Shown here piece by piece: positions 39 to 47,703 of a stretch of DNA of 64,000 bases. The position numbers and the translations under genes are program-made. The first letter of the stretch is position 1. The number at the start of each line of letters is the position of its first letter. This stretch comes from an uncultured Gammaproteobacteria bacterium. Its GTDB lineage: Bacteria > Patescibacteriota > Microgenomatia > Daviesbacterales > UBA10151. The notes under the pieces are model-generated. The model did no database searches. It saw nothing but the letters and a program-made list of their open reading frames with translations, and was not told the origin of the DNA. The stretch covers positions 2,969-66,968 of the forward strand of contig CAZYPW010000002.1 of the NCBI GenBank assembly GCA_964649615.1, read 5' to 3'.

Positions 39-1040
39 CTATCTTTTCAACTTTATACCAATATTTTGATGAATTGCTTTTTGGTATACATGATAAGCCA
101 CTGCAATATCTTCCAAAGACATACCAAATGGATTAAAAATTATTATTTCATCATCATTTTCCCGTCCTGGTTTTTTATTTAAAATAATACCTGATAGCTC
201 TGCATGAATAGCAGGGAGTTTACCCTCTCTAAACATCCTTCCGAAGATTCTTTTATCATCATTTTTAACAAGATTCCAGTCATCTACTATTAACTTATCG
301 GCTCTAGTTATAACCTCCGGGAGTAAATCATCTAGTGAGACATGAACCACGAGAGCGCCTTTTTTTAACCAATTATATTTAATGTAACCTGCATTTGTGG
401 TGGTGGTAGTTATAATTATATCTGAATTTATTACTGCTTCTTTAGGATTTTTTGCAACTATAAATTTTTCTTTTAAATTTTTGAACCTTTCAATAAATTT
501 TTTGATAGAAAGCTCGTTTGAATCAAATATATAAATATTTTTAATTTTCTTTAGGTGTTTACTTAGTAAATCTAAATGCGCTTTACCAATTGTACCCAGC
601 CCAATAATTGCTATTGTATTATCCCAATCCTTCTTTCTTAATAAATCTATTCCTAATGCGCTAACGCTTGCAGTTCGGAGTGAAGATATAAAAGAGCCTT
701 CCATCATACAGATAATTTTTGCAGTCAGAGTATCAAAAAGTAAGGTTAAACCACTGGCCCGCTCAATACCCCTTTTAAAATTTGAAATATTCCCATTAAT
801 AATTTTTGTCCCTGCGATTTGGTAATTTGCTCCAATAAACGCAGGCATATTTAAACTTCTTGCTGCTTCTTTTTCTTTATTTGTCCATGATAAATAAGCT
901 TCATCAGGAAGTACTGTATTACCGGTTCCGTGTAGTTTAAAAGCCTCTTCTATAATCTTTACTGTTTCCAGACCTTCGCATATTTTAATAACTTCTTCCT
1001 TGTTTAAATAAAGGATATAATCTTTGTTATCATTTGACAT
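39..1040 (-). CDS. Ornithine cyclodeaminase / mu-crystallin family NAD-dependent enzyme (SbnB-like)
   Basis: Rossmann motif IIGLGTIGKAHLDLL and OCD-family length. The likely start is the internal MSNDNK (ORF track extends to 1094). Divergent from a CysK/SbnA-like gene. Confidence 0.7.
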   Translation of the reverse strand: MSNDNKDYILYLNKEEVIKICEGLETVKIIEEAFKLHGTGNTVLPDEAYLSWTNKEKEAARSLNMPAFIGANYQIAGTKIINGNISNFKRGIERASGLTLLFDTLTAKIICMMEGSFISSLRTASVSALGIDLLRKKDWDNTIAIIGLGTIGKAHLDLLSKHLKKIKNIYIFDSNELSIKKFIERFKNLKEKFIVAKNPKEAVINSDIIITTTTTNAGYIKYNWLKKGALVVHVSLDDLLPEVITRADKLIVDDWNLVKNDDKRIFGRMFREGKLPAIHAELSGIILNKKPGRENDDEIIIFNPFGMSLEDIAVAYHVYQKAIHQNIGIKLKR

Positions 1041-1059
1041 ATTTACTATACTAGCAGAA

Positions 1060-2010
1060 ATGATATATAACGATCCACTAAAATTAATTGGCAATGCCCC
1101 TTTGGTTAAACTTATTAAAATTAGTAAAAAATTTAATGCTAATTTTTATGTAAAGCTGGAAAAATATAACCTGACAGGATCTGTAAAAGACCGCGCAGCC
1201 TTAGGAATGATAGAAAAGGGAGAAAAGACGGGAGTTCTAAAACCAGGAATGACCCTAATTGAATCCTCATCCGGAAATTTGGGGATCGCTATAGCAGCTA
1301 TATCTAGTATTAAAGGTTATAAGTTTATATGTGTAATTGACCCAAAAACCTCAGCATCCAAGATAAGTATTATCGAAGCTTATGGAGGAAAAGTGCTTTT
1401 GGTTAAAGATAAAGACAAAGACGGTTCTTATGTAAAGATACGGATTAAAAAAGTTAAGGAGTTAGCCAGTAGCAATAAAAACTTCTATAATTTAGACCAA
1501 TACAGTAATCAGGATAATACTCTAGCGCATTTTGAAACAACTGGCCCGGAGATTTTTGATGATTTAAAAGGTAATGTAGATGCCTTGGTGGGAAGTGTTA
1601 GTACATCAGGTACAATGGTTGGTACTGCAAAATTTTTGAAGAGTAGGATTCCTCACCTTTTTGTTATAGAGGTGGAACCTGTAGGATCAATTTTATTTGG
1701 AGGAGAATACAAACCTTATTATCAGCAAGGGCCGGGATTAAGTTTTATACCAAAAATTTTTGATAATTCTATATTTGATGAGTCGGTGAAAGTAAAAGAC
1801 AAAGATGCTTTTAAAACTGCCCATGATCTAGCAAAAAAAGAAGGAATTATCGTAGGAGGATCTTCTGGGGCAGCGGTCTATGCTGCTATAAAAACAAAAA
1901 AGAAGAATGTTGGTTTAAAAAGTATTGTTATAATTTGCCCTGATGGAGGAGAGAGATATTTAGACACTATGTTTTCCAAATCCTGGCTTAAAGAGCGGAA
2001 CTTAATTTAG
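1060..2010 (+). CDS. PLP-dependent cysteine synthase family enzyme (CysK/SbnA-like)
   Basis: SVKDRAA PLP-lysine motif, SSGNLGIAIA glycine loop, about 315 aa. The track start at 1024 is TTG; ATG at 1060 preferred. Confidence 0.75.
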   Translation: MIYNDPLKLIGNAPLVKLIKISKKFNANFYVKLEKYNLTGSVKDRAALGMIEKGEKTGVLKPGMTLIESSSGNLGIAIAAISSIKGYKFICVIDPKTSASKISIIEAYGGKVLLVKDKDKDGSYVKIRIKKVKELASSNKNFYNLDQYSNQDNTLAHFETTGPEIFDDLKGNVDALVGSVSTSGTMVGTAKFLKSRIPHLFVIEVEPVGSILFGGEYKPYYQQGPGLSFIPKIFDNSIFDESVKVKDKDAFKTAHDLAKKEGIIVGGSSGAAVYAAIKTKKKNVGLKSIVIICPDGGERYLDTMFSKSWLKERNLI

Positions 2011-2683
2011 GTAGCCTATATTTAATAGGATCTGTTAATCCTAAACTCTGAAAAGCTGCCTGGCGTGATCTACAGTTACTACATCCACCGCAAGCTAGCT
2101 TGCTGGCGTTATGACAGGACCAGGTTTTCTCAAATGGTACGTTTAGAGCTACCCCTGTTTGAATAACCTGAGCTTTATTCATTTCAATCAAAGGAGCAGT
2201 GATTGCAATATCAGTTTTGATCATTGTGCCAAGTTGAGTCAGACGCTGAAAAGCCTCGATAAACGCAGGTGAATTATCAGGGGCTATCCGGTCACTGCCT
2301 GTTGAACCAATGTATACTCTATCAGCACCTAAAACTTCAGCTAGAGCTACTCCAACTGCAAGAAGCAGGGAATTCCTAAAAGGGACATATTCAAATTTCT
2401 CATTTGCCTGTGTAAGAGAAACATCTCTTCTAAATAATCCAGAACCTCCAAAGCTTCTTAACCAGGGTAATCTGACTACATCCAAACTAATTGCTTGAAA
2501 GTGTTCTGCCAAACTAACTGCGCTTTTTCTTTCCCTACCTTGAGTTTTTTGTCCATAATCTACAAACAGAAATTTGGCATCAAAACCATCCCTTTTAGCA
2601 ATGGCTACAGTTACAGCACTGTCTAAACCACCACTTACTAAACAAACAGCTAATGGTTTTGATTCAGGAGATCTGGCATTCAT
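1988..2683 (-). CDS. queC: 7-cyano-7-deazaguanine synthase QueC (PP-loop ATPase)
   Basis: PP-loop CLVSGGLDS near the N-terminus and a C-terminal zinc motif CHNASKLACGGCSNC. The track ORF is over-extended at the N-terminus; start placed at MNARSP. Confidence 0.8.
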   Translation of the reverse strand: MNARSPESKPLAVCLVSGGLDSAVTVAIAKRDGFDAKFLFVDYGQKTQGRERKSAVSLAEHFQAISLDVVRLPWLRSFGGSGLFRRDVSLTQANEKFEYVPFRNSLLLAVGVALAEVLGADRVYIGSTGSDRIAPDNSPAFIEAFQRLTQLGTMIKTDIAITAPLIEMNKAQVIQTGVALNVPFEKTWSCHNASKLACGGCSNCRSRQAAFQSLGLTDPIKYRLPKLSSAL

Positions 2684-2726
2684 AATAATTGGGGTTATAA
2701 TAACAGTCAAAATAGCAAATATCAAT

Positions 2727-3848
2727 ATGATGAAAGCTGCAAATTTAAGCTGGTTAGAAATTGACCTAAAAAAATTTAGAGAAAATATAAAGCTGATGTT
2801 TTCTGTTTTATCTCCCAAAACAAAATATATGCTAATGGTAAAAGGTAATGCTTACGGACATGGATTAATTGAAATCTCCAAAATTGCGGTTGATGAAGGA
2901 GCATCATTTCTTGGCGTATCTTCACTAAAAGAGGCTATTGAACTTAGAGTTAATAGTATAAAAATTCCTGTTTTATTGCTTTCTGAAGCAGAGCCAAATT
3001 TTATACCAGATATCATAAAATATAAAATCACACCTACAGTTTATAATTTATCCTACGTCTTAGCTTTGACAAAAGTTGCTAAACAGAAAAATAAAATTAT
3101 ACCTATACATATTAAAATTGATACAGGTTTAAACAGGTTTGGCTTTAAAGTAAATCAAGTATTGCAAGATATCGTAAAAGTTTCCCAATTCAAAAACCTT
3201 CAAATTGAGGGAATATTTACTCACTTTGCAGATGCAATAAATGATTTGAAATTAGCTAAAGAGCACCTTAGCTTATTTAATAAATTATGCAAAGAGGTTA
3301 ACTCTTATGGTATTTATCCCAAGTACAGACATACAGCAAACAGCCCGGCATTGGTTTGGCTAAAAGAATCGCATTTAGATTTAGTGAGATTTGGCCTTGC
3401 CACTTACGGCTTACAGCCATCTTTAACAAAAAAGTATCCTCTGCCAATACAACCTGCATTAACCTGGAAAACTAAAATTATGCAGATTAAATATGTAAAG
3501 ATTGGTGAATACATAGGATATGGTAAAACTTTTAAAGCCAAAAAGGATATGACCATTGCTGTAATAGGAGTAGGTTATGCAGATGGTTTTAGAAGATCAC
3601 CATTAAATTACAGAAACGTTTTAGTTCATGGAGAAAAAGTTTCAATTGTTGGTCAGGTAACTATGAATTTTACTATGATTGATGTAACTAAGCTGAAACG
3701 CTTGAAGCTTTATGATGAGGTGGTAATTATAGGTAAACAAAAAGATTCCGTTATTACATTAGAAGAAATTGCTACTATATCCGAAACAATAAATGAAGAA
3801 ATTGTCACTGCTATTTCTGCCCTTATCCCGCGAATTTATCTTAAATAA
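2727..3848 (+). CDS. alr: Alanine racemase
   Basis: MVKGNAYGHG PLP-lysine motif and fold-type III racemase length. The N-terminal track extension overlaps queC; start placed at MMKAAN. Confidence 0.85.
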   Translation: MMKAANLSWLEIDLKKFRENIKLMFSVLSPKTKYMLMVKGNAYGHGLIEISKIAVDEGASFLGVSSLKEAIELRVNSIKIPVLLLSEAEPNFIPDIIKYKITPTVYNLSYVLALTKVAKQKNKIIPIHIKIDTGLNRFGFKVNQVLQDIVKVSQFKNLQIEGIFTHFADAINDLKLAKEHLSLFNKLCKEVNSYGIYPKYRHTANSPALVWLKESHLDLVRFGLATYGLQPSLTKKYPLPIQPALTWKTKIMQIKYVKIGEYIGYGKTFKAKKDMTIAVIGVGYADGFRRSPLNYRNVLVHGEKVSIVGQVTMNFTMIDVTKLKRLKLYDEVVIIGKQKDSVITLEEIATISETINEEIVTAISALIPRIYLK

Positions 3849-3889
3849 GCATATTATGTTATTATTGGCAATGAAAATTACTCAAACCT

Positions 3890-4774
3890 ATGGTTGAAAA
3901 GGGTAGAGATATTACTGTTGTAATAGCAAGTTCTGAAGACGAAGCAGTTTTTAACTGTATTGACTCAGTTAGAGATGAGGCAAGAATTGCTGTATCACTT
4001 ACTCCATATGCCTCAATAGAAACTAGGCTTTCAAAAATGGGTATCCCTTTTGTAGTAGTACCGAGGGGAAATTTGGGTGTAACTTTTAATGCCGGAATTG
4101 AACTGGCTACAACAAACAAAGTCATAGTTATGACTGATGACGCTGCATTTAAACCAGAAGCCATTAGGAAATTAGCAGAAGGGCTAGAACAATATGATGC
4201 ATGCAAAGCAAGGCTCTCGTTTCAATATGATGACGCTCATCCATTAAGCAAAGTTGTAGCAAGTGCCAGAGATTTTATTAATTCCTCTCCAACTAGGGTA
4301 TTTACTCCGGGTCTAGCTTTAAGGAAAGATATCAGAGATCGTATGGGAGGCCATTTTTTTAATGAACAGGTTAGATGGGCAGAAGATTCTGAATTTTCCT
4401 ATAGATTTCATAGGAATGGGTTGAGCTTTGGTTATATTCAGGATGCAGTTGTCACTCATCCTGCAGTTTCATTAAAACATGATTTAAGAGGTGCTTTTTT
4501 GATAGGATTGAGTAAAAGAAGGGCTGTTGATTTAGGACTAAGGAAAGGAGATGAAGACGTTGTACCTACATTCAAAAGAATTCTTTCAGGAGAGACTTTT
4601 GGAAGAAAAAGCAGACTATTTAGAGAAAAAGGGGCTAGTACATTGGTTTACATGCTCCTTTGGGATTCTGCTTATAATATCGGTTATAACTTGAGAAGAT
4701 TAGGGCTATCAGGCCCAATAGAAGATAGAATATGGCAGGACTTTGGTAGGGATCAACGTAATATAGTAAATTAA
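3890..4774 (+). CDS. Family 2 glycosyltransferase (GT-A fold)
   Basis: ITVVIASSEDEA N-terminal motif, DXD-like MTDDAAF, acidic WAEDSEF motif. Confidence 0.55.
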   Translation: MVEKGRDITVVIASSEDEAVFNCIDSVRDEARIAVSLTPYASIETRLSKMGIPFVVVPRGNLGVTFNAGIELATTNKVIVMTDDAAFKPEAIRKLAEGLEQYDACKARLSFQYDDAHPLSKVVASARDFINSSPTRVFTPGLALRKDIRDRMGGHFFNEQVRWAEDSEFSYRFHRNGLSFGYIQDAVVTHPAVSLKHDLRGAFLIGLSKRRAVDLGLRKGDEDVVPTFKRILSGETFGRKSRLFREKGASTLVYMLLWDSAYNIGYNLRRLGLSGPIEDRIWQDFGRDQRNIVN

Positions 4775-4782
4775 TTTTTATT

Positions 4783-6465
4783 ATGGGAAAAGAACAGGTA
4801 ATCTTAGGTATAAACGGTTACTCAAGAAGAACCCATAATGCTTCAGCGTGCATCGTGATTAATGGTGAATTGGTAGCCATGGCAGAAGAAGAAAGATTCT
4901 CAAGAAGGAAAAATGCCTTTGGTGAAGTTCCACACCATGCTATAGCTTTTTGTCTTGATAAAACTGGTATATCTGTAGATGAGGTGGAAAGTATAGCTGT
5001 AGGCTGGAATTTTGATAAAGTATTTGGAAATATAGGTTCCAGACCACCTACTAAGGATGACCTCCTAGACCTTTATTTACCTAAGGATAGATTTAAATAT
5101 TCCAAAAGACCAGAATTAGAAATGGTTCCACACCATATGGCTCACGCTGCTTCAGCATACTACTTATCCGGTATGCCTGAATCATTAATACTGGTTATTG
5201 ATGGGCAAGGGGAAACACAATCAACCAGTGTATTTATTGGTAAAGGTAAGGATATCTCACTTATCAAAGAGTTTGGGGTAACAGATTCGCTTGGCTATTT
5301 TTATGAGGCTGTATCTGAATATGTAGGTTTATCAAGGCTTGATGCGGGTAAAACAATGGGATTAGCAAGTTATGGTAATCCAAGGTATAGATTTGGCTTA
5401 TTTGAAATGGGCAGTTCGGGTTATTTAGTTAATATGGGTCAACCAGTCCAAACAGAAATGGATTTACAACAGGAAGTTACCAATTCCTGGAGAAACTATT
5501 TAGAAAATACATTTGGACCAAGGAATAGAGGGCAATTAGTATACGATCCAGCTACAACAAGATTTAAGAGAGAAATTTCTTTTAATGAAAGCTATAAAGA
5601 TATCGCTGCTTCTGCTCAGAAAACTTTAGAGGCTGTAATTAGGCATTTAATCACTCTATATTCAGGTGAATATCAGATGAGTAATTTATGTATTGCAGGA
5701 GGGGTAGGTCTAAATTGTTCAATGAATGGAGCAATTGCCAGAGAAGAGATTGTTAGAGATCTATTTGTGCCTCCATTTTCTGACGACGCAGGGGTATCAG
5801 TTGGCGCAGCTTTATATTTATCTGACCAAAAACCCTCTTCCAGATTAGAATCAGCATCACTCGGACCTGAATTTTCAAATGAAGCAATTATTGCTACTCT
5901 TGAACTACTCGGAATTAATTACAGGTTAGTAGACGATATTGGAAGCATTGTGGCTAAACTTCTCGCGGAGGATAAAATAGTTGACTGGTTTCAGGGAAGA
6001 ATGGAGGCAGGACCAAGAGCTTTAGGAAATCGAAGCATATTGGGAAATCCTGCAAATAGAACAACGCATGATAGATTAAACGTAATAAAAAATCGGGAAA
6101 GCTGGAGACCTCTTGCGCCCAGCTTTTTAGCTGAAGGGCTAGCCGACTATATGATACATCCTTCAGATTCACCATTTATGTTAAGAGCTTTCATTGTACG
6201 GTCAGACCGAGTAGATGAAATACCTGCAGCTGTCCATATAGATGGAACTTCAAGAGCACAAACAGTAACAGAAAAAGATAACCCTTTATATTACAGATTA
6301 ATTAGGGATTTCCAACGGATTAGCGGTATCCCTGCTGTTATGAATACATCTTTTAATCTGGATTTTGAACCAATAGTTTGCTCACCTCATGATGCAATAA
6401 GAACTTTTTATTCAAGTGGCGCTGACTATTTAGCTATTGGGGATGCACTTATTTCAAAAAAGTAA
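4783..6465 (+). CDS. Carbamoyltransferase, NodU/CmcH/TobZ family
   Basis: N-terminus GINGYSRRTHNASACIV...AEEERFSRRKN, 560 aa, with the family's N and C domains. Confidence 0.8.
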   Translation: MGKEQVILGINGYSRRTHNASACIVINGELVAMAEEERFSRRKNAFGEVPHHAIAFCLDKTGISVDEVESIAVGWNFDKVFGNIGSRPPTKDDLLDLYLPKDRFKYSKRPELEMVPHHMAHAASAYYLSGMPESLILVIDGQGETQSTSVFIGKGKDISLIKEFGVTDSLGYFYEAVSEYVGLSRLDAGKTMGLASYGNPRYRFGLFEMGSSGYLVNMGQPVQTEMDLQQEVTNSWRNYLENTFGPRNRGQLVYDPATTRFKREISFNESYKDIAASAQKTLEAVIRHLITLYSGEYQMSNLCIAGGVGLNCSMNGAIAREEIVRDLFVPPFSDDAGVSVGAALYLSDQKPSSRLESASLGPEFSNEAIIATLELLGINYRLVDDIGSIVAKLLAEDKIVDWFQGRMEAGPRALGNRSILGNPANRTTHDRLNVIKNRESWRPLAPSFLAEGLADYMIHPSDSPFMLRAFIVRSDRVDEIPAAVHIDGTSRAQTVTEKDNPLYYRLIRDFQRISGIPAVMNTSFNLDFEPIVCSPHDAIRTFYSSGADYLAIGDALISKK

Positions 6466-6477
6466 TTATTAAAGTTT

Positions 6478-7149
6478 ATGGAAAAAGAAAAGAGGACGAA
6501 TTATAGAGTAAAAACTCCTAGCATTTGGCCTGCCGCAAACCAGAGGTTTTTTAGATTTTTGAAAGGAATTGAAGACAGAAATTTTCCTAAAACCTTGGCT
6601 ATTTTGGGCTGCTCAGATGGGAGTTATGTATTGCCCGCAGCAAAAAGAGGGTTTGCAGTGCTTGCAATAGATACTGACCATGTGGCTTTATATGGAGGTG
6701 TTATTCCGCTTTATAGAAATAATGTTGAAGTAATGGGTTTAACAAACAGACTTAAAGTAGAGGGTATTGAAAGCCAGGTAACAGTTGTATGCGATGATTG
6801 CTTTTCATATAATCCAAGAAATACTTTCTCAGGAGTATTTACCAGTGGTTTGATCCATTATCAAGATAATTCCCACTATCCGTTAAGCCAAATTATCAAT
6901 GGTATTCAATCATATGTAGCTCCGGGAGGTTTATTGATTATGGAATATATTCATCCTTCTGATGAAAATAATGATCCATTAAGACATTTCCCAACTGCGA
7001 AAGAATTGGTACAATACTTCCAGGTAAAAGACTGGAAAGTTACGAGTAACAAGAAAAAAAGGTATACTGAAGGTCCAAATCCTCGCAACCCACGTATTCA
7101 TGATATTGTATGGGGAAGGTTATATGCACAAAAACTTAAGTCAAATTAA
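6478..7149 (+). CDS. Putative class I SAM-dependent methyltransferase
   Basis: Glycine-rich LAILGCSDGSYVL...LAIDTD resembling a SAM-binding motif I/II. Weak. Confidence 0.4.
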   Translation: MEKEKRTNYRVKTPSIWPAANQRFFRFLKGIEDRNFPKTLAILGCSDGSYVLPAAKRGFAVLAIDTDHVALYGGVIPLYRNNVEVMGLTNRLKVEGIESQVTVVCDDCFSYNPRNTFSGVFTSGLIHYQDNSHYPLSQIINGIQSYVAPGGLLIMEYIHPSDENNDPLRHFPTAKELVQYFQVKDWKVTSNKKKRYTEGPNPRNPRIHDIVWGRLYAQKLKSN

Positions 7150-7885
7150 TTTGAAGCAGTTAAAAAAAAATTATGATGAGATAGGCATCCGGGTCGGTTG
7201 GGATTTCTCACGAATGAAAGATGAAAAAGAGTCTGCTCCATGGGACTATATTGAGATCGTGATTCGATATATTAAATCAACAGATTATGTTCTAGATATT
7301 GGTACAGGCGGTGGAGAAAAGTTCATTAAGTTATCCCAATATTTTTCCAAAGGAGTGGGTATTGATCCTTATCCAGAAATGATTAATACAGCGAAAAATA
7401 ACGCTGCTAAAAGCAATAATACTAAACTCTCTTTTGAATTGATGGGTGCAGAAGATATTCAGTTTCAGGAAAATACCTTTGATACTGTCCTTAACCGTCA
7501 TGCTCTAGTTGTTCCAAAGGAGGTAGTTAGAGTTTTAAAACCTGGTGGATATTTTATAACTCAACAAGTAGCAAAAAATAATATGCAAAATATAAAACAA
7601 GTTTTTAATTATAGAAAGACTTGGCAAAACGACGCACTTACTCTAAGTCGTGATTTTGAAAAAAATGGATGTAGGGTTATTGCCACAGGGAAATACAACA
7701 TCAATTATTGGGTAAAGGATCTTGAGTCACTGGTTTTCTGGTTAAAAGCAGTTGATTTACCCGAAAATTTTAATATCGAAGATCATGGTTTACAGTTACT
7801 GAAGTTTATTAAACAATACACGACACCAAAAGGATTTATAACTAATGAATCCAGGGAGTTTTTAATAGCCCAAAAAGTAAAATGA
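7124..7885 (+). CDS. Class I SAM-dependent methyltransferase (Methyltransf_11-like)
   Basis: VLDIGTGGGE motif I and VLKPGGYFI motif. Confidence 0.65.
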   Translation: MHKNLSQINLKQLKKNYDEIGIRVGWDFSRMKDEKESAPWDYIEIVIRYIKSTDYVLDIGTGGGEKFIKLSQYFSKGVGIDPYPEMINTAKNNAAKSNNTKLSFELMGAEDIQFQENTFDTVLNRHALVVPKEVVRVLKPGGYFITQQVAKNNMQNIKQVFNYRKTWQNDALTLSRDFEKNGCRVIATGKYNINYWVKDLESLVFWLKAVDLPENFNIEDHGLQLLKFIKQYTTPKGFITNESREFLIAQKVK

Positions 7886-9144
7886 CAGAACGTTTTAAGG
7901 ATCTACAAGCAGAATTAATTGAGGGGGCTCGAATTCAGGATGCTTACGATTTAAATACTATCAATTTGATTGCTCCTGCCAGCCCAACACTTTTAAAATA
8001 TTTTTACAATCTTCCTCTTAGGCATAATGCTATAGCTGAGGGCTTATTAGGACGCAGACCTTATGCTGGAGTTGAAGGCTTTAACAAAATTGAAGCAATT
8101 GCTGTCGAGGCAGCATGTTTATTATTTGGAGCAGAACATGCTAATGTTCAACCTCATTCTGTTAGTCAGGCAAATCAAGCTGTATATCAGGCACTTTTGG
8201 GAAATGGAGATCGAGTACTGGCTATGAAGTTTGAGGACGGAGGACATTTAACCCATGGCCTAAAGACTAATTTTTCCGGACGTTTTTTTGATTTTGATTT
8301 TTATGGAGTTGATCGGACAACTGGTTTAATAGATTATGATGCCCTAGAGAAACAGGCAAAAGATTTTAAGCCTAAATTAATTGTCTGCGGTGCTTCTTCT
8401 TATCCTAGAGCAATTGATTTTGAAAGATTAGCCGATATCTCAGCTAAAGTAGGCGCCTATTTAATGGCAGATTTATCCCATCCTGCTGGATTGATTGTGG
8501 CAAAAAGGTTTCTTCAACCTTTTCCTCATTGCGATGTCGTTACATTTACCCCTGATAAAACCATGCTTGGTCCTCACGGGGGGATAATTCTTTGTAAGGA
8601 TACCTTAAGTGAACAAGTAGATAAAGGCGTTCATCCCGGGGTCCAATCAAGTGTGCCCTTGAGAAGAATTTATGAAATGGCTCAATGTATGATTGATGCC
8701 AGTAAGCCAGAGTTTCAAGATTATATTGACCGGGTCATTAAAAATATCAAAGCATTTGAACAGGTATTTTTGGATAGTCCAGGCATGATGGTAACAGGTG
8801 GAAGCGATACCCATTTAATGGTTATAAATACAAGAGATACTTTTGGCTTAACTGGTAGGGATTCAGAGGGAGTATTAGAGAGTATTGGTATTCTGACTAA
8901 CCGCCAGGTAATTCCAGGAGAAAAACTTAGGCCTTACGTAGCCAGCGGGCTTAGGTTTGGTACTTCTTGGATAACAGCTAGAGGTTATGATCAGGCGGAG
9001 ACAGCGGTTGTCGCGGGAATAATGTTAGATAATCTATCTAATCCAAAAAATCCTGTGGTGCAAGAAAGATCTAGGAATTTAGTTAATGATCTTCTGCAAA
9101 TCAGGAGAGAAAAAGATGTCTGGCTTGAGGAAGGTAGTAAATAG
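7882..9144 (+). CDS. glyA: Serine hydroxymethyltransferase family PLP enzyme
   Basis: GGHLTHG motif and the PLP-lysine region VTFTPDKTMLGPHGG, matching the SHMT TTHKTLRGPRGG block. Confidence 0.75.
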   Translation: MTERFKDLQAELIEGARIQDAYDLNTINLIAPASPTLLKYFYNLPLRHNAIAEGLLGRRPYAGVEGFNKIEAIAVEAACLLFGAEHANVQPHSVSQANQAVYQALLGNGDRVLAMKFEDGGHLTHGLKTNFSGRFFDFDFYGVDRTTGLIDYDALEKQAKDFKPKLIVCGASSYPRAIDFERLADISAKVGAYLMADLSHPAGLIVAKRFLQPFPHCDVVTFTPDKTMLGPHGGIILCKDTLSEQVDKGVHPGVQSSVPLRRIYEMAQCMIDASKPEFQDYIDRVIKNIKAFEQVFLDSPGMMVTGGSDTHLMVINTRDTFGLTGRDSEGVLESIGILTNRQVIPGEKLRPYVASGLRFGTSWITARGYDQAETAVVAGIMLDNLSNPKNPVVQERSRNLVNDLLQIRREKDVWLEEGSK

Positions 9145-9145
9145 T

Positions 9146-10078
9146 ATGCCAAGAATAGAAGAACAATCACTTGCGATAACCATGGCCAGTGACGAAAAAT
9201 ATATTCCTTATATAACTACTGCTCTAAGAAGCATAAGAAGATATAACACCACCATCCAGATTGATGTTTATAGTTGTGCAAATATCAGACCACTTCTTCC
9301 TTTGGATGGGGTTAACGCTAGATTCCATGAGGTAACAGTGCCGAAAAAGCTCACTGCTTCTTTGGATGGGGAAGAGCTAGCTCATGCTTCAACAAGGGTG
9401 GCGAAGCTAGAATCGCTTACCCAAAGGGGTACTGATAAATTAATGTATGTCGATTGCGATATCGTTGTACTGGATGATTTAGGAAAGATAACTCAAGAAC
9501 TGCCAGTTGATGGTAGCGACAATCCAATAGTTTACATGCTTTTAAGACGACCCGATCTTCTATCAGTAAACGATCTTAGTTGGCTTTACTTTAGAGATAG
9601 TTCCCAATTATCAAACCAGCAAATGACCGGATTGGTCAACGATACTTTTTCTTTAGACTATTCTACCGAGAGATTTCAAGCTCTTAGATGCTGGAATGGA
9701 GGCCTTGTATATGGTTCAACCCAAGGGGTTAATATTCTTGGGGACTTATGGAAGGATTACTATAACCGAATGCTGACACATAGAGATAGAGGTTCGTTCA
9801 TTCCCAACGACCAGCTTTGTCTTTGGTTAGCAGCCGAGCAACTGGAAAAAGTACTAACAATAAGAGAACTACCCCTAGCTTGGAACTTTATGCCAGGACA
9901 TGCACTGGAAGAAGTTATGGGAAAAGCAGATCCAAAACTTGAGGAAATTAAGAAAGCTTTAGGTGGGGTAAAAATTCTGCATTTCGCACAGAATAAAACT
10001 GATCCGTGGGTTCAAGTCCTTGTGGATGATATTAATTCAGAAAAAGGTAGCAGCTTTCAAGGAAGCACTACACCATGA
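9146..10078 (+). CDS. GT8-like nucleotide-diphospho-sugar glycosyltransferase
   Basis: MASDEKYIPY N-terminal pattern and YVDCDIVVLDD DXD motif typical of GT8. Confidence 0.45.
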   Translation: MPRIEEQSLAITMASDEKYIPYITTALRSIRRYNTTIQIDVYSCANIRPLLPLDGVNARFHEVTVPKKLTASLDGEELAHASTRVAKLESLTQRGTDKLMYVDCDIVVLDDLGKITQELPVDGSDNPIVYMLLRRPDLLSVNDLSWLYFRDSSQLSNQQMTGLVNDTFSLDYSTERFQALRCWNGGLVYGSTQGVNILGDLWKDYYNRMLTHRDRGSFIPNDQLCLWLAAEQLEKVLTIRELPLAWNFMPGHALEEVMGKADPKLEEIKKALGGVKILHFAQNKTDPWVQVLVDDINSEKGSSFQGSTTP

Positions 10079-10767
10079 GCCAAGTTGAATCAACTGATTC
10101 AAAACTGATCCACCGACCCCAATATAGCTTCGCTAATCCCGACTCCGCTCTTTTTCTCACCGGTACTCCTTTATCAGGTAAATCTACGATAGCTCCTTTA
10201 GTTGCTGCCAATATTGAAGGTTGTACTGTTCAGAATATGGATATTATCCGGTTATTAGCCCAGGAAATGGAAACACGTAAACCGGAAAGTGAAAGAAATC
10301 CCTTCGTAAGGTATGGCTCTTGCGACAGTTATCTTTTTGTAGGAGATGGTTCGTACTCACCCCAGAGCCTTGTGACTGGATTTAATTACTATGCACGGGC
10401 TGTTTCTTCCTTATTAACAGGAATTATCCCAAGGTTAGAAGTTCAGGGAGCACAAAGAGTGTTATTTGAAGGTGTTCAATTAACACCAGGAATAGTATCC
10501 CCGTTTTTAGTTGGTAATAATAAGTTAATAGTAATTACCTCAGATGAGGCTAGATTAGGTGCTAATAGAGATAAACGCTACGGCAAAGATAAAGAATTAC
10601 TTGAGAGGTATTCACTTGATAGATTATTATTATTGCAAGGAGAAATTATGAGGCAAAGCCAACAAGTTCCTCCTGATAAAATATTTTTTGTTGATAATTC
10701 TGGAGATTATATAGATTCAACAATGCGGATAATTCGTCTTTTAATAGCTGAAGGCATAATTGCTTAA
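10075..10767 (+). CDS. P-loop NTPase / small-molecule kinase-like protein
   Basis: Walker A GTPLSGKST. Size and architecture resemble 2-phosphoglycerate kinase, TmrB or chloramphenicol-phosphotransferase families. Confidence 0.4.
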   Translation: MSQVESTDSKLIHRPQYSFANPDSALFLTGTPLSGKSTIAPLVAANIEGCTVQNMDIIRLLAQEMETRKPESERNPFVRYGSCDSYLFVGDGSYSPQSLVTGFNYYARAVSSLLTGIIPRLEVQGAQRVLFEGVQLTPGIVSPFLVGNNKLIVITSDEARLGANRDKRYGKDKELLERYSLDRLLLLQGEIMRQSQQVPPDKIFFVDNSGDYIDSTMRIIRLLIAEGIIA

Positions 10768-10791
10768 ATTTAATTTTGGTATACTCTATGT

Positions 10792-11508
10792 ATGGAACAG
10801 GTTTTTTTCGAGGAAATTAATGGCAAAAAAGTTTTTTGTTTCTTATCAGAACCAAATAATTTATCTAAAAAGATAGTTATTATGAGCCATGGTTTCAGGG
10901 GTACTAATGTAGGACCTGCCAGACAATTTGTAGATTTTCAGAGGATACTTAGTAAAGAGGGTTTTTCAGTGCTTCGTTTTGACCAGCCCAATAGCGGAAA
11001 CTCAGAAGGGAACTATATTAACTCTTCATTTAAGGAATGGGTAAATACAATTGTCTATTTTGCAAAGAAATATATTGACTTAGGGTATGATGTAAACATT
11101 TTGGGACAAAGCATGGGTGCCACAGCTACAGTTATAGCGACAAATGACCAGAAAATAGAAGATAAAGTATCCTGTTTGTTACTTTGGGTGCCTGATCCAG
11201 AAACAGATTTTTCCGGTGAATCACAAGAAATTTATGAAGAAGGTGGCCAGAAATATAAAGGAAGTTTTTGGCAGGAAGCAAAAGATGCTGACTTTTTTCA
11301 ATGCTTAAATAATTACCAAGGTAAGATACATCTAGTATATGGAGAGGTAGATAGATATATAACAAAATATTTGATCAATAAAACAATAAAAATTGTACGG
11401 GAGAAAGGACAAGACGTAATGATATTAAAAAATCAGGATCATAGTCCTTGGGAGTTTGATTTAGTACAAGAAGTTTATAAACAAGAATTAGCCAAACTAC
11501 GAGAATAA
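10792..11508 (+). CDS. Alpha/beta hydrolase
   Basis: HGFRG oxyanion region and nucleophile elbow GQSMGA (GxSxG). Confidence 0.65.
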   Translation: MEQVFFEEINGKKVFCFLSEPNNLSKKIVIMSHGFRGTNVGPARQFVDFQRILSKEGFSVLRFDQPNSGNSEGNYINSSFKEWVNTIVYFAKKYIDLGYDVNILGQSMGATATVIATNDQKIEDKVSCLLLWVPDPETDFSGESQEIYEEGGQKYKGSFWQEAKDADFFQCLNNYQGKIHLVYGEVDRYITKYLINKTIKIVREKGQDVMILKNQDHSPWEFDLVQEVYKQELAKLRE

Positions 11509-11514
11509 ATTTCA

Positions 11515-12504
11515 ATGGAACAGATTAATGAATCACTATCGATGGTACTCAGTGCAGCAGATAAGACCTATATATTAACTAGTCTCGTAGTTGAGTTTAT
11601 TGATGTCCTACAAAGAGATGGTGCGACTAGAACAACAGACATTGCTAGGGCAACTTCTTTACCCAAACGAACACTAAGACGGTTAGTTGGCGAACTCGAT
11701 TCTTGTGTGAGGATAGATCGTGATCGTTATTCATTAACTAGCGAAGGGGAACATCTGGCTTCAGAATTATTTAGCTACCGACAAAAACGCTTTGGGGAAG
11801 TGGAGAAAAGAGGAGAACAAGGGTTGGTATTGCTAGAACAGATTGAGAAGGAGCGGGGCCCATCAAAGAGAAATCTTGATCAATTCCGAGTAACACCAGC
11901 AACATCCATTGTCAGAGCTAAGCTGGCAGATGAGAAATTCGATATTGTGGGTAGGCGAATTGTCTTCTTGGGTGATAATGACCTTACGTCAGTAGCCGTA
12001 GCCACTCTTGGTGGTTCATCTAGGATAACTGTGCTTGATATAGATAGTGATGTTCTAGAAGCGATAACTAGAACAGCTAAACTACGCGATTTGAACATCG
12101 AGTGCGTTTCGTATGATGCCAGAGAGCCGCTTAAATCCAATCTGCGCGACAGCTTTGATATACTCTTTACTGATCCGCCTTACACTCGAAGTGGTGTGCG
12201 TTTGTTCTTATCGCGAGCGGCAGGGCTTTTGAATGAAGCACCTGGAACATCCTACTTCTCGTACGGTTTTAGCCTCCGCGCCCGCGAACGCGGACTTGCA
12301 ATACAGCGGTTGATTGCTGAACAAGGCTGGCTCGTTTACGGTATGTGGCCAGGATTCAATCAGTATTACGCGGCAGGTTCAATTGGAGCACGATCTGATT
12401 TATATCGTTTGATTCGTACCCCAAAGACAGTAAACCTAGTCCCAGGACGTTTCCTTGATAACATCTATACAGGCCTAGATTTATCACAACCGCATTTGGC
12501 ATAA
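11515..12504 (+). CDS. DUF43-family protein (BpsA-like branched-chain polyamine synthase / methyltransferase fold) with an N-terminal wHTH
   Basis: IVFLGDNDLTSVA and FTDPPYT motifs recalled for DUF43, plus an N-terminal winged-helix segment. Confidence 0.45.
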   Translation: MEQINESLSMVLSAADKTYILTSLVVEFIDVLQRDGATRTTDIARATSLPKRTLRRLVGELDSCVRIDRDRYSLTSEGEHLASELFSYRQKRFGEVEKRGEQGLVLLEQIEKERGPSKRNLDQFRVTPATSIVRAKLADEKFDIVGRRIVFLGDNDLTSVAVATLGGSSRITVLDIDSDVLEAITRTAKLRDLNIECVSYDAREPLKSNLRDSFDILFTDPPYTRSGVRLFLSRAAGLLNEAPGTSYFSYGFSLRARERGLAIQRLIAEQGWLVYGMWPGFNQYYAAGSIGARSDLYRLIRTPKTVNLVPGRFLDNIYTGLDLSQPHLA

Positions 12505-12545
12505 ATAGAAATCTATGCTAGAATTAGCAACTCAAAGTCAATCAA

Positions 12546-13568
12546 ATGGCAAAACAAGAATTTATAGGATATAGTACTCATTGTCTTCAAGACGTTCAGA
12601 GGCGTTTAGCCCAAGTAGACGCAACTCCAAATGAGGAAATTGGGCAACATTTCCTGGTTAATCAAGGAGCTATAGATTTGTTGGCACAAACAGTAAATCC
12701 AGGGAGTACTGTAATAGAGGTAGGCTGTGGGGTAGGACATATAACTGAAAGGTTGGCAGAAAGAGCAGCAAAGTTACATGGTATTGAGATTGACCGAAGG
12801 TATAGGCCTCTTCTGGATGGGTTGACTAGCAGATTCAGTAATTTAAATGTAATTTATGGGGATGCATTAGCAGTAGATTTTGATAGGCTATTACATGGTG
12901 ATAAACAAGAAGATGGGCAAATTATTGCAAGTTTACCGTATCATATTACTGAACCATTTATACAAAAAGTTACTCCGCTAAAATTGTCTAGTGTAACTTT
13001 AGTAGTAGGTAGAAGGTATGCTGACTCAATAGCTGCTTCAGTTGATTCAGGTGAGTTTGGCAGATTAAGTATTCTAACTGCAACATTTTTTGATGTTGAA
13101 ACACTGGCAACAATTCAAAGAGATGGATTCTTCCCGATTCCAAGAACTGATTCAGCAATGGTACAGCTTAGACCAAGAGAGCCAGAAGAAGTAGGATCTA
13201 ATAGAAGAGATATCATATTTAGACATTTATTTCTGACATCAAAGCAAAATTCAACATTAAGAAAGGGTTTGAAGGAAGGATTAGATGTATTTGAACTAGC
13301 TAGAGATAGTATAGGTTTATCTAAAAAGGAACGTAACCGTAAATCCAGAGTCAATACAAAACTACGTTTAAGAGAAGCTTTAGGACAGGTTAATAGAGGG
13401 AATGTCGATAGTGAAAATCAATCAGATGCTTCTAATTCAGCAAGTTTACTGTCCAGATTGAGTAGAAATACAATCGCCAAATTAAATATTCCCGATATGA
13501 CACTTGATAAGCCATTTGCGCTACTCAATAATTCAGAATTAAGAATGCTCTATCAGTCTTTAGGTTAA
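12546..13568 (+). CDS. KsgA/Dim1/Erm-family rRNA adenine N6-dimethyltransferase with an extended C-terminus
   Basis: QHFLVNQ (QNFL-like) motif, SAM motif EVGCGVGHIT, LPYHITEP (NLPYNIS-like). 340 aa, longer than KsgA (about 270) or Erm (about 245). Confidence 0.75.
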   Translation: MAKQEFIGYSTHCLQDVQRRLAQVDATPNEEIGQHFLVNQGAIDLLAQTVNPGSTVIEVGCGVGHITERLAERAAKLHGIEIDRRYRPLLDGLTSRFSNLNVIYGDALAVDFDRLLHGDKQEDGQIIASLPYHITEPFIQKVTPLKLSSVTLVVGRRYADSIAASVDSGEFGRLSILTATFFDVETLATIQRDGFFPIPRTDSAMVQLRPREPEEVGSNRRDIIFRHLFLTSKQNSTLRKGLKEGLDVFELARDSIGLSKKERNRKSRVNTKLRLREALGQVNRGNVDSENQSDASNSASLLSRLSRNTIAKLNIPDMTLDKPFALLNNSELRMLYQSLG

Positions 13569-13759
13569 TCTTTCCAAGCGAATATCTTATAGGAAGGGAT
13601 CGTTTCTCTTTTCTGGTATTATTTCGTATATGCCTGAATTAGATAAATCTTTTGTAGAAATTAAAAAGTAGCTCAAGATATTTAAAGAGTGTTTCTCTCT
13701 GTTTAATAGTTGTAAGTGGCTCAATAACTGGTGCTACCCTAGCATCATTTAACTTGTAA

Positions 13760-14040
13760 ACTCCAGAGGAAATTTTTTATTTTCTTTCTTGCTCTCTTCT
13801 TTCTAAATCTCTTTTATGCTGTGATGCCTCATATAAAAAAGGAGAGGGTAGTAAAGAAATATTAGAAAGTTTTAGTAGTAATAAATCAAGATTCTATACT
13901 TTCTTAACTAAAGAAAATTTAAATAGCTTGCTGGAAGATGCAGGTTTTAAGATTATTGAGACTTATGAAATAAATGAGAGGGAAAGATTTGGACCTACAA
14001 AACGAGATCTTATTTGGATCCACTCCTTCTCAAAAATATA
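13760..14040 (+). pseudogene. Start-less remnant of a methyltransferase C-terminus
   Basis: Open frame after a stop at 13757 with no ATG, ending ...LEDAGFKIIETYEINERERFGPTKRDLIWIHSFSKI*. Resembles the C-terminal region of class I methyltransferases. Confidence 0.35.
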
Positions 14041-14066
14041 ATTTATCTTGTTCTGACAGTCTAAAG

Positions 14067-14140
14067 TACCGCGTACGGGAGTCGAACCCGTGATTTCTGG
14101 GATGAAAACCCAACGTCCTAGGCCACTAGACGAACGCGGC
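14067..14140 (-). tRNA. tRNA-Glu (anticodon UUC)
   Basis: The reverse complement folds as a cloverleaf with a GUCUAGUGGCCUAGGAC D-arm like E. coli tRNA-Glu. Anticodon loop UUUUCAU, T-loop TTCGACT. Confidence 0.8.
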
Positions 14141-14644: not shown

Positions 14645-15520
14645 ATGCAAGCATCAGAAGATTTATTGGTTCCCATTAAACTAGGCATTATTGGCTATGG
14701 TTTTGTGGGTCAGGCTGTTGCCAACGGCTTCAGGGAAGCATCCTTTGGGAAGGATACCATTCTTTGGTATGACAAATACAAGGATGGAAGCTCTTTGGAA
14801 GATACTATAAAGAGAAGTGAATTCATCTTTGTTTGTCTGCCTACTCCTATGAAACAGGATGAATCTGGAATAGAACTGTCTATTTTTGAAGAAATGATTC
14901 CACAAATTACTAAACTAACAGACAAAACAGACAAAATTATTATTATTAAATCCACTGTGACCCCAGGTACAACTGCCAAATTTGAAAAAAGTTTTCCTAA
15001 TTCTCATTTCTGTTTTAGCCCGGAATTTCTAACAGAGGCTAATTTTTTGGATGATTTTATTAATGCTGAAAGAACAGTGATTGGGGCCAATAATGATTTA
15101 ATTTTAAGAAGGGTGGCGGTGGTTTTTAAACAAAGATTTCCTAACACTCAGCTTTTTTTGACAGACCCAATAACAGCTGAAACTGTCAAATATTTTGCCA
15201 ATGCTTTTCTTTCCTTAAAAGTTACCTTTGCCAATTATTTTTATGATTACTGCCAGGCTTTAGGGATTAAATATGAGGAAGTCAAGAAAATGGCTGCAGC
15301 AGATCACAGAATAGGAAATTATCATCTGGAGGTTACCACCAACAGAGGTTTTGGGGGGAAGTGTTTTCCCAAGGATTTGGTAGCTATCATGGGAGAGTTT
15401 AAAAAATTAGGAGTAAATACATCTTTGTTAGAAACTATGTGGGAATATAATAAAAAAATCAGAAAAGTCCATGATTGGGAAGAGATTCCATTTGCTGTAG
15501 AAGGTAACCACAAGAAATAA
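14645..15520 (+). CDS. UDP-glucose/GDP-mannose dehydrogenase family protein, C-terminally truncated
   Basis: NAD-binding IIGYGFVGQAV and catalytic-Cys motif GGKCFPKD. At 291 aa it lacks the C-terminal UDP-binding domain. Confidence 0.55.
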   Translation: MQASEDLLVPIKLGIIGYGFVGQAVANGFREASFGKDTILWYDKYKDGSSLEDTIKRSEFIFVCLPTPMKQDESGIELSIFEEMIPQITKLTDKTDKIIIIKSTVTPGTTAKFEKSFPNSHFCFSPEFLTEANFLDDFINAERTVIGANNDLILRRVAVVFKQRFPNTQLFLTDPITAETVKYFANAFLSLKVTFANYFYDYCQALGIKYEEVKKMAAADHRIGNYHLEVTTNRGFGGKCFPKDLVAIMGEFKKLGVNTSLLETMWEYNKKIRKVHDWEEIPFAVEGNHKK

Positions 15521-47683: not shown

Positions 47684-47703
47684 TTGACTAGATATTAATT
47701 TAG

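Follow-up and report, generated by a model that had tools for sequence, protein, structure and literature searches.

A putative 7-deazapurine biosynthetic gene cluster with a KsgA-derived methyltransferase in Microgenomates-type Patescibacteria

What does a tightly packed run of small-molecule tailoring genes, closed by a gene of the KsgA/Erm superfamily and followed by a tRNA gene, do in a member of the Patescibacteria? We address this question for positions 3890–13568 of a 64,000-nucleotide stretch of contig CAZYPW010000002.1 (assembly GCA_964649615.1), referred to as the window throughout. An earlier note on this DNA had described an accessory island ending at tRNA-Glu, and had read it either as a small-molecule tailoring locus with an Erm-like self-resistance gene or as a cell-surface glycan locus that happens to contain the housekeeping ksgA. 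We find that the block belongs to a family of gene clusters in Microgenomates-type Patescibacteria, the existence and composition of which we hold with high confidence. What the cluster is organised around is the QueC-like gene upstream of position 3890 together with the 7-deazaguanine genes of its relatives, and its methyltransferase is neither an Erm nor an orthodox KsgA, forming instead a cluster-specific sister clade of KsgA. We give a probability of roughly one half to the reading that the cluster encodes a secreted, bioactive, aminoglycoside-like deazapurine metabolite together with an rRNA-methylating self-resistance gene.

The comparison draws on 46 related Patescibacteria/Microgenomates loci (L numbers), relatives being seen as flanks of ±10 kb. 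Seven were reached through homologs of the methyltransferase (33–76% identical), two through homologs of a serine hydroxymethyltransferase (SHMT) paralog and one through a species-representative genome collection, while 35 come from JGI metagenomes and were found with a profile of a kinase here called Y. The metagenome loci were labelled by blastp against our own reference set, with some labels checked by Pfam, and unlabelled genes may hide further functions. All seven look-ups made through the methyltransferase fall beside QueC-containing clusters, and both made through the SHMT paralog lead to the same cluster, in one case within a complete genome of 802,554 bp. Taken together, the metagenome loci selected by the kinase profile yield the consensus order DUF43(BpsA_C)–AdoMetDC–FolE–QueD–QueE–QueC–carbamoyltransferase–GT2–SHMT–Y–RrnaAD. 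A gene of the RrnaAD family is present in 25 of the 28 kinase-selected loci with sequence past Y, and none of these genes is best matched by canonical KsgA. Because it adjoins the cluster both in these loci and in 7/7 look-ups that started from the methyltransferase, we conclude, in line with the first of the two readings in the earlier note, that this gene belongs functionally to the block and is not a chance neighbour.

The 7-deazaguanine pathway is the common core of these loci. FolE, QueD, QueE and QueC are found inside the cluster in at least 16 loci, where the gene between QueD and QueC, which has no Pfam match, is QueE-like. In eight loci (L026, L031, L032, L035–L038 and L040) the cluster has neither QueD nor QueE, and the gene directly 5′ of QueC encodes a queuosine-precursor transporter of the Vut_1/YhhQ type; FolE is retained in L026, L031 and L032. 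Because either the precursor genes or a YhhQ-type importer sits in the clusters, there is strong circumstantial evidence that a 7-deazaguanine base, made or imported, is the scaffold. The retention of QueC beside an importer suggests that 7-carboxy-7-deazaguanine (CDG) is the imported compound, or else that this QueC is not a nitrile synthase. A QueC-like gene is present in every locus picked via the methyltransferase. That of the window (1988–2683, minus strand; Pfam QueC 5.6e-50) would encode an ATP-dependent CDG-activating enzyme, which scores 133.7 bits against the NCBIfam QueC model, below the cut-off of 150.3, and has only distant matches in the PDB (Cap9, 57 bits; QueC, 45 and 37 bits). 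By analogy, we hypothesize that it is either a preQ0 synthase or a CDG:amine ligase similar to RoyL. No TGT/DpdA, QueF, QueA, QueG/H, ArcS or DpdB/C is annotated in the Pfam-annotated loci, and no TGT signature motif occurs in 663 kb of loci, the motif search being a weak test. No preQ1 riboswitch was detected in the window or in seven loci.

The QueC-like gene shares the region left of the block with three genes that may supply an amine. An SbnB-like NAD-dependent dehydrogenase of the ornithine cyclodeaminase family (39–1043, minus strand; the ORF spans 39–1094 from a TTG, with the likely ATG at 1043) matches Pfam OCD_Mu_crystall at 1.3e-43, and its best NCBIfam match is the SbnB family with 274.9 bits (cut-off 326.9). 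Its divergent neighbour is an SbnA-like pyridoxal phosphate (PLP) enzyme of the cysteine-synthase fold (1060–2010, plus strand, within an ORF at 1024–2010; Pfam PALP 1.3e-67), for which the best NCBIfam match is SbnA with 327.2 bits (cut-off 349.95). The alanine racemase Alr (2727–3848, plus strand) scores 343 bits against a cut-off of 168. This SbnA/SbnB/Alr module is found in the window, L007, L013 and L019; in the three relatives the SbnA- and SbnB-like genes are adjacent and Alr is contiguous with them. Judged by these family matches, the SbnA/SbnB-like pair is a probable L-2,3-diaminopropionate module. On L009, a contig identical to the window, Alr is called as 373 aa.

How far does the unit extend? 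The earlier note had counted eleven co-directional genes from 3890; its list of families stands by Pfam and NCBIfam, and the number is corrected to ten open reading frames (ORFs), all on the plus strand of 3890–13568 with intergenic gaps of −59 to +41 nt. Nor is 3890 the left boundary. In L019, the methyltransferase of which is 76% identical to that of the window, the order is SbnB, SbnA, QueC, Alr, X (a glycosyltransferase), carbamoyltransferase, SHMT, GT8-like, Y, hydrolase, an unnamed gene and RrnaAD, the left part matching the window, and L007 and L013 also have the SbnA/SbnB/QueC/Alr genes of the window in differing orders. Because L019 keeps the order and L007 and L013 share the genes, the co-inherited unit runs at least from 39 to 13568. 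The left edge of the window probably cuts the cluster, with 39–13568 making up most of it, since relatives have FolE, QueD, QueE and AdoMetDC and the window does not.

Two proteins characterize the cluster. The first is an SHMT-fold PLP enzyme (7882–9144; Pfam SHMT 318 bits), a cluster-specific paralog that scores 370 bits against the NCBIfam SHMT subfamily (cut-off 335) and is about 45% identical to solved SHMTs. It retains the Schiff-base Lys, the GGHLTHG motif and the carboxylate-binding Arg, and reads HNAIAEGLLGRRPYAG, TFTPDKTMLGPHGG, HPGVQSSVPL and TNRQVIP where a solved SHMT has the canonical motifs. The replacements comprise SEN to PAS, TNKYAEGYPG to HNAIAEGLLG, RYYGG to RPYAG, THK to PDK, GPRGG to GPHGG, GGQGGP to GVQSSVP and NKN to NRQ. 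These swaps are kept in all seven loci aligned, with the same contrasts against PDB 3pgy, and point to an altered active site and pterin site. The paralog is also the most conserved protein of the cluster, with 69–80% identity across the compared loci, in which the methyltransferase shows 35–71%. It lies directly upstream of Y or one gene off in all 33 loci with enough upstream sequence, and about 38 of 63 SHMT-paralog matches on contigs of at least 9 kb, counted by eye, agree with a listed Y match in the length of their longest contig.

The second is Y itself (10075–10767; Walker A GxPLSGKST), which belongs to no Pfam family and has a weak P-loop kinase match only. Its structural model (predicted local distance difference test (pLDDT) 92.9) shows a P-loop kinase fold like that of nucleoside monophosphate (NMP) kinases, on which basis Y appears to be a novel P-loop kinase. 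The family comprises 156 clusters at 90% identity; 18 representatives match at E ≤ 1e-30 among the 1.84 billion searched, after which the matches drop to generic kinases, and no relatives of Y were found on viral contigs. Essentially, the SHMT paralog and the methyltransferase occur only beside Y, and Y has no relatives outside the cluster.

The methyltransferase that closes the block (12546–13568; Pfam RrnaAD 5.3e-32, 111 bits), designated RrnaAD-ext, is a KsgA-derived enzyme of the adenine-N6 type. It scores 146 bits against the NCBIfam RsmA model (TIGR00755; cut-off 171) and its closest solved relatives are Bacillus subtilis KsgA (102 bits) and archaeal Dim1 (about 100 bits). The N-terminal domain of its AlphaFold2 (AF2) model (pLDDT 85.7) superposes on B. 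subtilis KsgA with 1.8–2.1 Å. In a neighbour-joining tree the family is monophyletic and sister to canonical RsmA/KsgA, while ErmB/C fall outside it (the references for E. coli KsgA, ErmB and ErmC, like that for E. coli GlyA, were entered by hand). We therefore reject the Erm identity raised in the earlier note: scores (95.2 bits against the Erm model NF000499, cut-off 212; 38 bits to ErmC′), placement beside KsgA in the tree and fold all speak against it, the 50 best Foldseek matches being KsgA, Dim1 or TFB1M with no Erm among them. Around 82 full-length relatives are found in the database before scores fall from 174 to 104 bits, the level of ordinary RsmA, and NCBI labels the homologs ‘hypothetical protein’. 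One canonical RsmA match, when looked up, lay in a Gram-negative LptD–SurA–KsgA context.

The departures from KsgA are concentrated in motif IV and in the C-terminal region. The protein retains LGQHFL, IEVGxGxG, IEID and FxPxPxxxS, with catalytic motifs I–VIII as in KsgA. Motif IV is SLP(Y/F) in 60 of 82 family members (SLPY in the window), and only some members, most of them basal, have NLP(Y/F). Of the KsgA motifs F-x-QRRK, RAE-LS and QKEV none is retained, QRRK being changed to K/R-Q/R-N/S-S/P with a two-residue deletion and RAE-LS to LD-x-x-LN. The C-terminal region is longer than that of KsgA and more basic (net charge +7.7 ± 2.8, against +2.9 ± 2.0 in KsgA and +9.5 in ErmB/C). It contains a conserved Arg/Lys-rich insertion (‘LSKKERNRKSR...’) of about 65 residues, which in the AF2 model forms a long helix and is disordered beyond it. 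The gene is absent from 3 of the 28 loci, occurs in two to three copies in L012, L016, L041 and L042, and is also found beside clusters without SHMT and Y (L014 and L018); the 64-kb window has no second RrnaAD gene. From these features, the enzyme is a cluster-bound, fast-evolving KsgA paralog that probably binds RNA.

Between these genes lie enzymes for sugar, carbamoyl and aminopropyl transfer. X (3890–4774) is a GT-A, GT2-type glycosyltransferase with a conserved DxD motif; it matches Pfam Glycos_transf_2 weakly in the window (23.7 bits) and clearly in its orthologs in L013, L014 and L015. The Asp at the DxD position is invariant in the alignment, and the best PDB match of the profile is the glycosyltransferase SunS. 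The TobZ/NodU/CmcH-type carbamoyltransferase (4783–6465) has both its Kae1-like and YrdC-like parts (Carbam_trans_N 153.7 bits, Carbam_trans_C 213.9 bits), and its best PDB match is the O-carbamoyltransferase TobZ, with 407 bits over residues 7–559, against 26 bits for TsaD. The DUF43 protein (11515–12504; Pfam BpsA_C 6e-41) carries an N-terminal winged-helix-like domain and best matches N4-bis(aminopropyl)spermidine synthase (BpsA) in the PDB (85.5 bits). Members of its family are paired with AdoMetDC in most related loci, with the caveat for aminopropylation that AdoMetDC homologs can instead decarboxylate ornithine or arginine (PMC10407285). The DUF43 gene is the sole GC-rich gene of the block (GC 0.446; GC at third codon positions (GC3) 0.355), which bears out a local rise noted earlier at 11.5–12.5 kb, at 0.446 and not the 50% given there, and not for the block as a whole. 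In the close relative L019 its place is taken by an unrelated 244-aa ORF, and the two observations suggest a recent module swap within the cluster.

Four further genes are accessory. MTa (6478–7149) is a weak class I S-adenosylmethionine (SAM) methyltransferase (Methyltransf_23, E = 4.5e-4, below cut-off), a homolog of which is labelled in L020 and absent from L019. MTb (7124–7885) is a class I SAM methyltransferase (Methyltransf_31, _11 and _25, about 1e-15) that is 51% identical to a homolog in L005; it is called as 253 aa on L001. The putative GT8-like glycosyltransferase (9116–10078; Glyco_transf_8 E = 0.0022, below cut-off) has orthologs in L019 and L042, and the alpha/beta hydrolase (10792–11508; Pfam Abhydrolase_1) has an ortholog in L019 and one with 57% identity in L007. 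Thus the assignments of the earlier note hold for GT2, NodU/CmcH, methyltransferases, SHMT, GT8-like, P-loop kinase, hydrolase, DUF43 and RrnaAD, those of GT2, GT8-like, the kinase and one methyltransferase being weak, and the impression of aminoglycoside- or nucleoside-type small-molecule tailoring is supported.

The tailoring content varies from locus to locus. In L012, L016, L041 and L044 the carbamoyltransferase and GT2 genes are replaced by a DegT aminotransferase together with a nucleotide-diphospho-sugar transferase or an FAD oxidase. A PIG-L/BshB-like deacetylase marks L014, L018, L023 and L024, phosphatases lie at the 3′ end of the cluster in L016, L026, L028, L044 and L045, an APH-family kinase occurs in L039 and ABC transporter genes in L014; GNAT genes and additional methyltransferases appear in assorted loci. 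Even the close relatives L018 and L019, with methyltransferases 74–76% identical to that of the window, have tailoring content unlike the window's. At L018 (1–11023) the methyltransferase (74% identical) follows a very different aminosugar gene set of a truncated SerRS-like ligase, a 511-aa radical SAM enzyme, a G1PDH-like protein, a QueC-like protein, a BshB-like deacetylase, DegT, GT4, a UDP-GlcNAc-3-dehydrogenase-like enzyme, GNAT and an Asp/Glu-type racemase. This set resembles mycothiol/bacillithiol or aminoglycoside logic.

From this gene content we propose the following pathway. CDG or preQ0 would be made from GTP by FolE, QueD and QueE, the genes for which probably lie just left of the window, or would be imported by a YhhQ-type transporter elsewhere in the family. 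The QueC-like enzyme would then activate the carboxylate and convert it to a nitrile or, if it works as RoyL does, join it to an amine in an amide bond. In the window the SbnA/SbnB-like pair may supply L-2,3-diaminopropionate as this amine, Alr being a racemase that goes with the pair. The BpsA-like DUF43 protein could add an aminopropyl group with decarboxylated SAM. X would attach a hexose or hexosamine, which the TobZ-like enzyme would O-carbamoylate; in other variants DegT, with or without an oxidase, may aminate the sugar instead, in parallel to the tailoring of the 6-position in aminoglycosides. MTa, MTb, the GT8-like protein and the hydrolase would provide lineage-specific decorations. 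The SHMT paralog is expected to perform PLP-dependent C–C chemistry of the Ser/Gly/Thr type with its changed pterin site. The substrate of Y may be an intermediate or the product itself, the added phosphate serving to activate it or to give a protected pro-form, and the phosphatases of some loci suggest that this phosphate is transient. Finally, the KsgA-derived methyltransferase would methylate an adenine in the rRNA of the producer, sparing its ribosome from the product. We favour a bioactive small molecule with self-resistance because the tailoring genes turn over, APH, GNAT and ABC genes occur occasionally, and the methyltransferase varies in copy number and is portable.

Described natural-product systems share parts of this logic. 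The huimycin/dapiramicin-type clusters, like the window family, combine preQ0 genes (FolE, QueD, QueE and QueC) with a glycosyltransferase and SAM methyltransferases; a nucleic-acid insertion enzyme is missing from the former and from the annotated loci of the latter. In the hui locus of Kutzneria albida, a carbamoyltransferase gene directly adjoins and is dispensable for huimycin (PMC7439116). Unlike the window family, that locus is from an actinomycete and lacks the SHMT paralog, Y, the BpsA/AdoMetDC module and the RrnaAD methyltransferase, the comparison being one of gene content. For roseomycin A, RoyL-family QueC homologs ligate amines to CDG (bioRxiv 10.64898/2026.04.15.718813). The peptidyl 7-deazapurine (RoyL) clusters and the window both place a divergent QueC homolog beside genes that supply, in the window putatively, an unusual amine or amino acid. 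The position of the QueC-like gene between the SbnA/SbnB-like pair and the racemase, and the retention of QueC even in importing loci, would by analogy be RoyL-like traits. The tailoring differs, with ATP-grasp, TauD and desaturase enzymes in roseomycin clusters and sugar, carbamoyl and aminopropyl transfer in the window family. The same study (bioRxiv 10.64898/2026.04.15.718813) recognizes 7-deazapurine metabolite clusters by FolE, QueD and QueE, with or without QueC, the absence of TGT/DpdA from cluster and genome, and adjoining tailoring enzymes. Measured against this definition, the tailoring enzymes adjoin, and the window itself has the QueC-like gene only, while the orthologous clusters of at least 16 relatives have all four genes.

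Parallels also exist for the sugar chemistry and for the methyltransferase. With aminoglycosides the family shares a full-length TobZ homolog (6′′-O-carbamoylation), DegT with or without an FAD oxidase (6′-oxidation/transamination), PIG-L and APH; in contrast to them, its main variant has no genes for aminocyclitol synthesis (2-deoxy-scyllo-inosose or inositol), and the scaffold would be a deazapurine, not a cyclitol. As in Erm/PikR self-resistance, a biosynthetic cluster is bordered by the gene of an RrnaAD-fold enzyme with a basic C-terminal domain; this gene is duplicated in some cases, for which PikR1/PikR2 is the two-copy parallel; however, the Erm clade is separate and the window protein branches with KsgA. 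KsgA/RsmA/Dim1, the dimethyltransferase of 16S rRNA A1518/A1519, shares its fold and catalytic motifs with the window protein, which differs in having SLPY in place of NLPY, in its basic insertion, in being bound to a cluster and in that it can be multi-copy.

Several points weigh against a secreted metabolite with ribosomal self-resistance. All chemical steps are read from enzyme families, the observations themselves being gene content, synteny, folds, motif changes and distribution. A tblastn search of the 64-kb window found no homologs of FolE, QueD, QueE or AdoMetDC, and a dedicated exporter is present in few loci only. The basic C-terminal region of the methyltransferase probably points to RNA binding and not to its purpose. 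The carbamoyltransferase (TsaD-like), the GT2 enzyme (like the enzyme of galactosyl-queuosine) and the kinase (P-loop RNA kinases) all have RNA-modifying relatives. To our knowledge, no 7-deazapurine metabolite is documented as ribosome-targeting or as countered by rRNA methylation. Selected ‘resistance’ methyltransferases from the candidate phyla radiation (CPR) gave no resistance phenotype when expressed in E. coli, in a selection that need not cover this family (10.64898/2026.07.13.738296).

The RNA-modifying relatives just mentioned fit the main rival, which we consider unlikely. It holds that the preQ0 or CDG made by the cluster enters tRNA or rRNA through a transglycosylase whose gene lies elsewhere, and is then glycosylated, carbamoylated, aminopropylated and methylated on the RNA, with the KsgA-like enzyme as one RNA-acting step. 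In a more specific form, quite unlikely in our view, the cluster would install a multi-step hypermodified 7-deazaguanosine (glycosylated, carbamoylated or aminated, and aminopropylated) in rRNA or tRNA, with the KsgA-derived enzyme and Y both acting on RNA. Against RNA hypermodification, TGT/DpdA, QueF, QueA and QueG are missing from the annotations of the Pfam-annotated loci, the 663 kb hold no TGT motif, and tailoring modules are exchanged among close relatives, which is unusual for such pathways. The methyltransferase is missing in 3 of 28 loci, multiplied in others and present without SHMT and Y, the carbamoyltransferase is far nearer to TobZ than to TsaD (407 against 26 bits), and the family is rare, as its 156 clusters at 90% identity attest.

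Alternatively, the same small-molecule cluster could use its KsgA-like enzyme as a tailoring N-methyltransferase, acting on the exocyclic amine of the deazaguanine or on an aminosugar, and not for resistance. The SLPY/F motif in 60/82 members and the loss of the ribosome-contact motifs QRRK, RAE-LS and QKEV could mean a substrate other than helix 45, the gene is nearly always in the operon right after the biosynthetic genes, and the substrate base of KsgA, a flipped-out purine, would be chemically near the scaffold. An acidic catalytic domain joined to a basic, partly inserted C-terminal region (+7.7), which is Erm-like, points instead to a polyanionic partner, and 0–3 copies per locus together with its presence in chemically different clusters (L018) fit a resistance gene better. 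We know of no RrnaAD-family enzyme that acts on a small molecule, and we regard this alternative as decidedly doubtful.

A housekeeping neighbourhood, in which the queuosine-precursor operon, glyA and ksgA of the lineage merely lie together with unrelated sugar genes, is very unlikely. It would account for an SHMT paralog that is highly conserved and above its subfamily cut-off (370 against 335), for a methyltransferase closest to KsgA and for the native composition. Against it, the methyltransferase falls under the RsmA equivalog cut-off and lacks the KsgA C-domain motifs, the SHMT paralog is changed family-wide at canonical active-site and folate-site positions, both occur essentially only beside Y, with two to three methyltransferase copies in some loci, and the genes overlap in the manner of an operon. 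The family is also small when set against 2,415 Microgenomates assemblies, and about one erm-like (RrnaAD) match per CPR genome is reported (10.64898/2026.07.13.738296). A surface glycan decoration locus, which the earlier note had paired with a housekeeping ksgA, is scarcely credible: surface polysaccharide loci often contain glycosyltransferases, a carbamoyltransferase and methyltransferases, L013 continues with several GT2/GT4 genes and the window has a UDP-sugar dehydrogenase-like gene further downstream, but the conserved part has no flippase, polymerase, priming transferase or lipid-carrier enzyme, and what is conserved there are 7-deazaguanine genes together with those for an aminopropyltransferase, a kinase and an RNA-type methyltransferase.

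The queuosine/archaeosine tRNA systems and the Dpd DNA systems share the preQ0 pathway genes and the YhhQ-type transporter with the cluster; unlike those systems, its loci have no annotated insertion or downstream enzymes, no preQ1 riboswitch and generic PADLOC matches only. A known anti-phage system (Qat, or type IV CBASS with the QueC-like Cap9) was rejected, PADLOC returning only generic matches to QueC and to a methyltransferase, and so was an origin in phage or DNA modification, as Y has no relatives on viral contigs and DpdA/TGT are missing. No described system joins a deazaguanine pathway, the SHMT paralog, kinase Y, BpsA/AdoMetDC and a KsgA-derived methyltransferase, and the nearest systems are not from candidate-phyla bacteria. 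In the searched literature we found no description of this cluster. One paper remarks in passing on a Patescibacteria contig with ‘BGC and MLS resistance’ (PMC9927545), surveys count ‘erm’ matches in CPR genomes (10.64898/2026.07.13.738296), and a large genome-mining survey of deazapurine pathways leaves Patescibacteria unmentioned.

Is the block, then, an island at tRNA-Glu? The tRNA-Glu(ttc) gene (14066–14140, minus strand; ARAGORN and Rfam) does have its 3′ end towards the block, as had been described. Translations reveal no intact gene in the spacer (13569–14065), and the decayed methyltransferase remnant placed there (about 13790–14042, plus strand), a possible C-terminal piece, reaches a non-significant E = 0.2 against the last 27 positions of Methyltransf_23, with no blastx match to cluster proteins. 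In composition the block does not stand out from the 42 other genes of the window (GC 0.366 against 0.363, p = 0.84; GC3 0.261 against 0.282, p = 0.054). No recombinase or integrase gene lies between 1 and 16 kb in the window, and no repeat of the tRNA-Glu region longer than 13 nt occurs in the window, the far cluster boundary falling outside it. A minus-strand tRNA within about 1.2 kb of the cluster end is found in the window (Glu), L005 (Lys), L016 and L045 (Gly/Pro/Leu) and L039 (Gln), and in none of about 30 others. The relatives thus share no tRNA boundary, and their downstream neighbours differ in every locus, even at 74–76% methyltransferase identity (GroES/EL, AKR/BipA, HIT/CAP, AhcY, GT2 and restriction–modification genes). 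A recent island at tRNA-Glu is therefore rejected on its flat composition, the lack of a nearby integrase and of a tRNA-end repeat in the window, and tRNA neighbours that are not conserved. The best description is of an accessory cluster that is old and lineage-restricted, relocates, and diversifies module by module.

Mobile-element genes were seen at other places. IS3-type transposase genes lie directly upstream of the methyltransferase in L004 (399–1446), where the contig ends, and L005 has an rve_3 integrase-core gene (751–1158) upstream of its cluster. In the window, a 573-aa large serine recombinase with Resolvase and Recombinase domains (26868–28589, minus strand) abuts and partly overlaps tRNA-Asp(gtc) (26847–26920), and the ORFs next to it at 28.7–31.2 kb have no Pfam matches. 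This recombinase at tRNA-Asp is a better candidate for an element integrated at a tRNA gene than the cluster.

CPR genomes measure about 1 Mb, and the general view is that nucleotide synthesis is missing from them and secondary metabolism all but absent. Here, a conserved, diversifying pathway that uses GTP or an imported deazaguanine precursor, and has an RNA-type methyltransferase of its own, takes up about 1.5% of such a genome. If the product is a bioactive compound, the cluster is a candidate means by which episymbionts act on hosts or competitors, and would bring a new antibiotic scaffold and a new family of KsgA-derived resistance genes, now mislabelled ‘erm-like’ or ‘hypothetical’. If the RNA is modified instead, it would represent a new class of hypermodification specific to ultra-small symbiotic bacteria. 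Under either reading, three enzyme families with testable substrates may offer new chemistry in a clear genomic context: the SHMT paralog, Y, and the QueC-like enzyme with its amine-supply genes.

The remaining observations concern the contig and the genes around the cluster. Scans for promoters and terminators gave counts not above those in shuffled sequence and were uninformative. The short-read contigs L001 and L002, from the same population, both stop at 14090, inside tRNA-Glu, and L009–L011 and L001 break inside QueC (about 2301) and inside the carbamoyltransferase gene (about 5853–5882). Differences between strains could explain these breaks, as could paralogous clusters in the community that confuse assembly. 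Beyond tRNA-Glu, a UDP-glucose/GDP-mannose dehydrogenase-like ORF of 291 aa (14645–15520) has the N-terminal and central domains and no C-terminal domain, and may be a truncated or short variant. The window is AT-rich (about 36% GC) and contains the core genes DnaE, GatA/GatB, L19 and FtsA; these genes and the names carried by homologs (Daviesbacteria, Levybacteria and Shapirobacteria) assign it to the Patescibacteria/Microgenomates. Unrelated to the cluster, a PolX-type DNA polymerase with a PHP domain, a heavy-metal P-type ATPase with HMA and a DsbD_2–cupredoxin fusion are encoded at 25083–26825 and 45398–52353.

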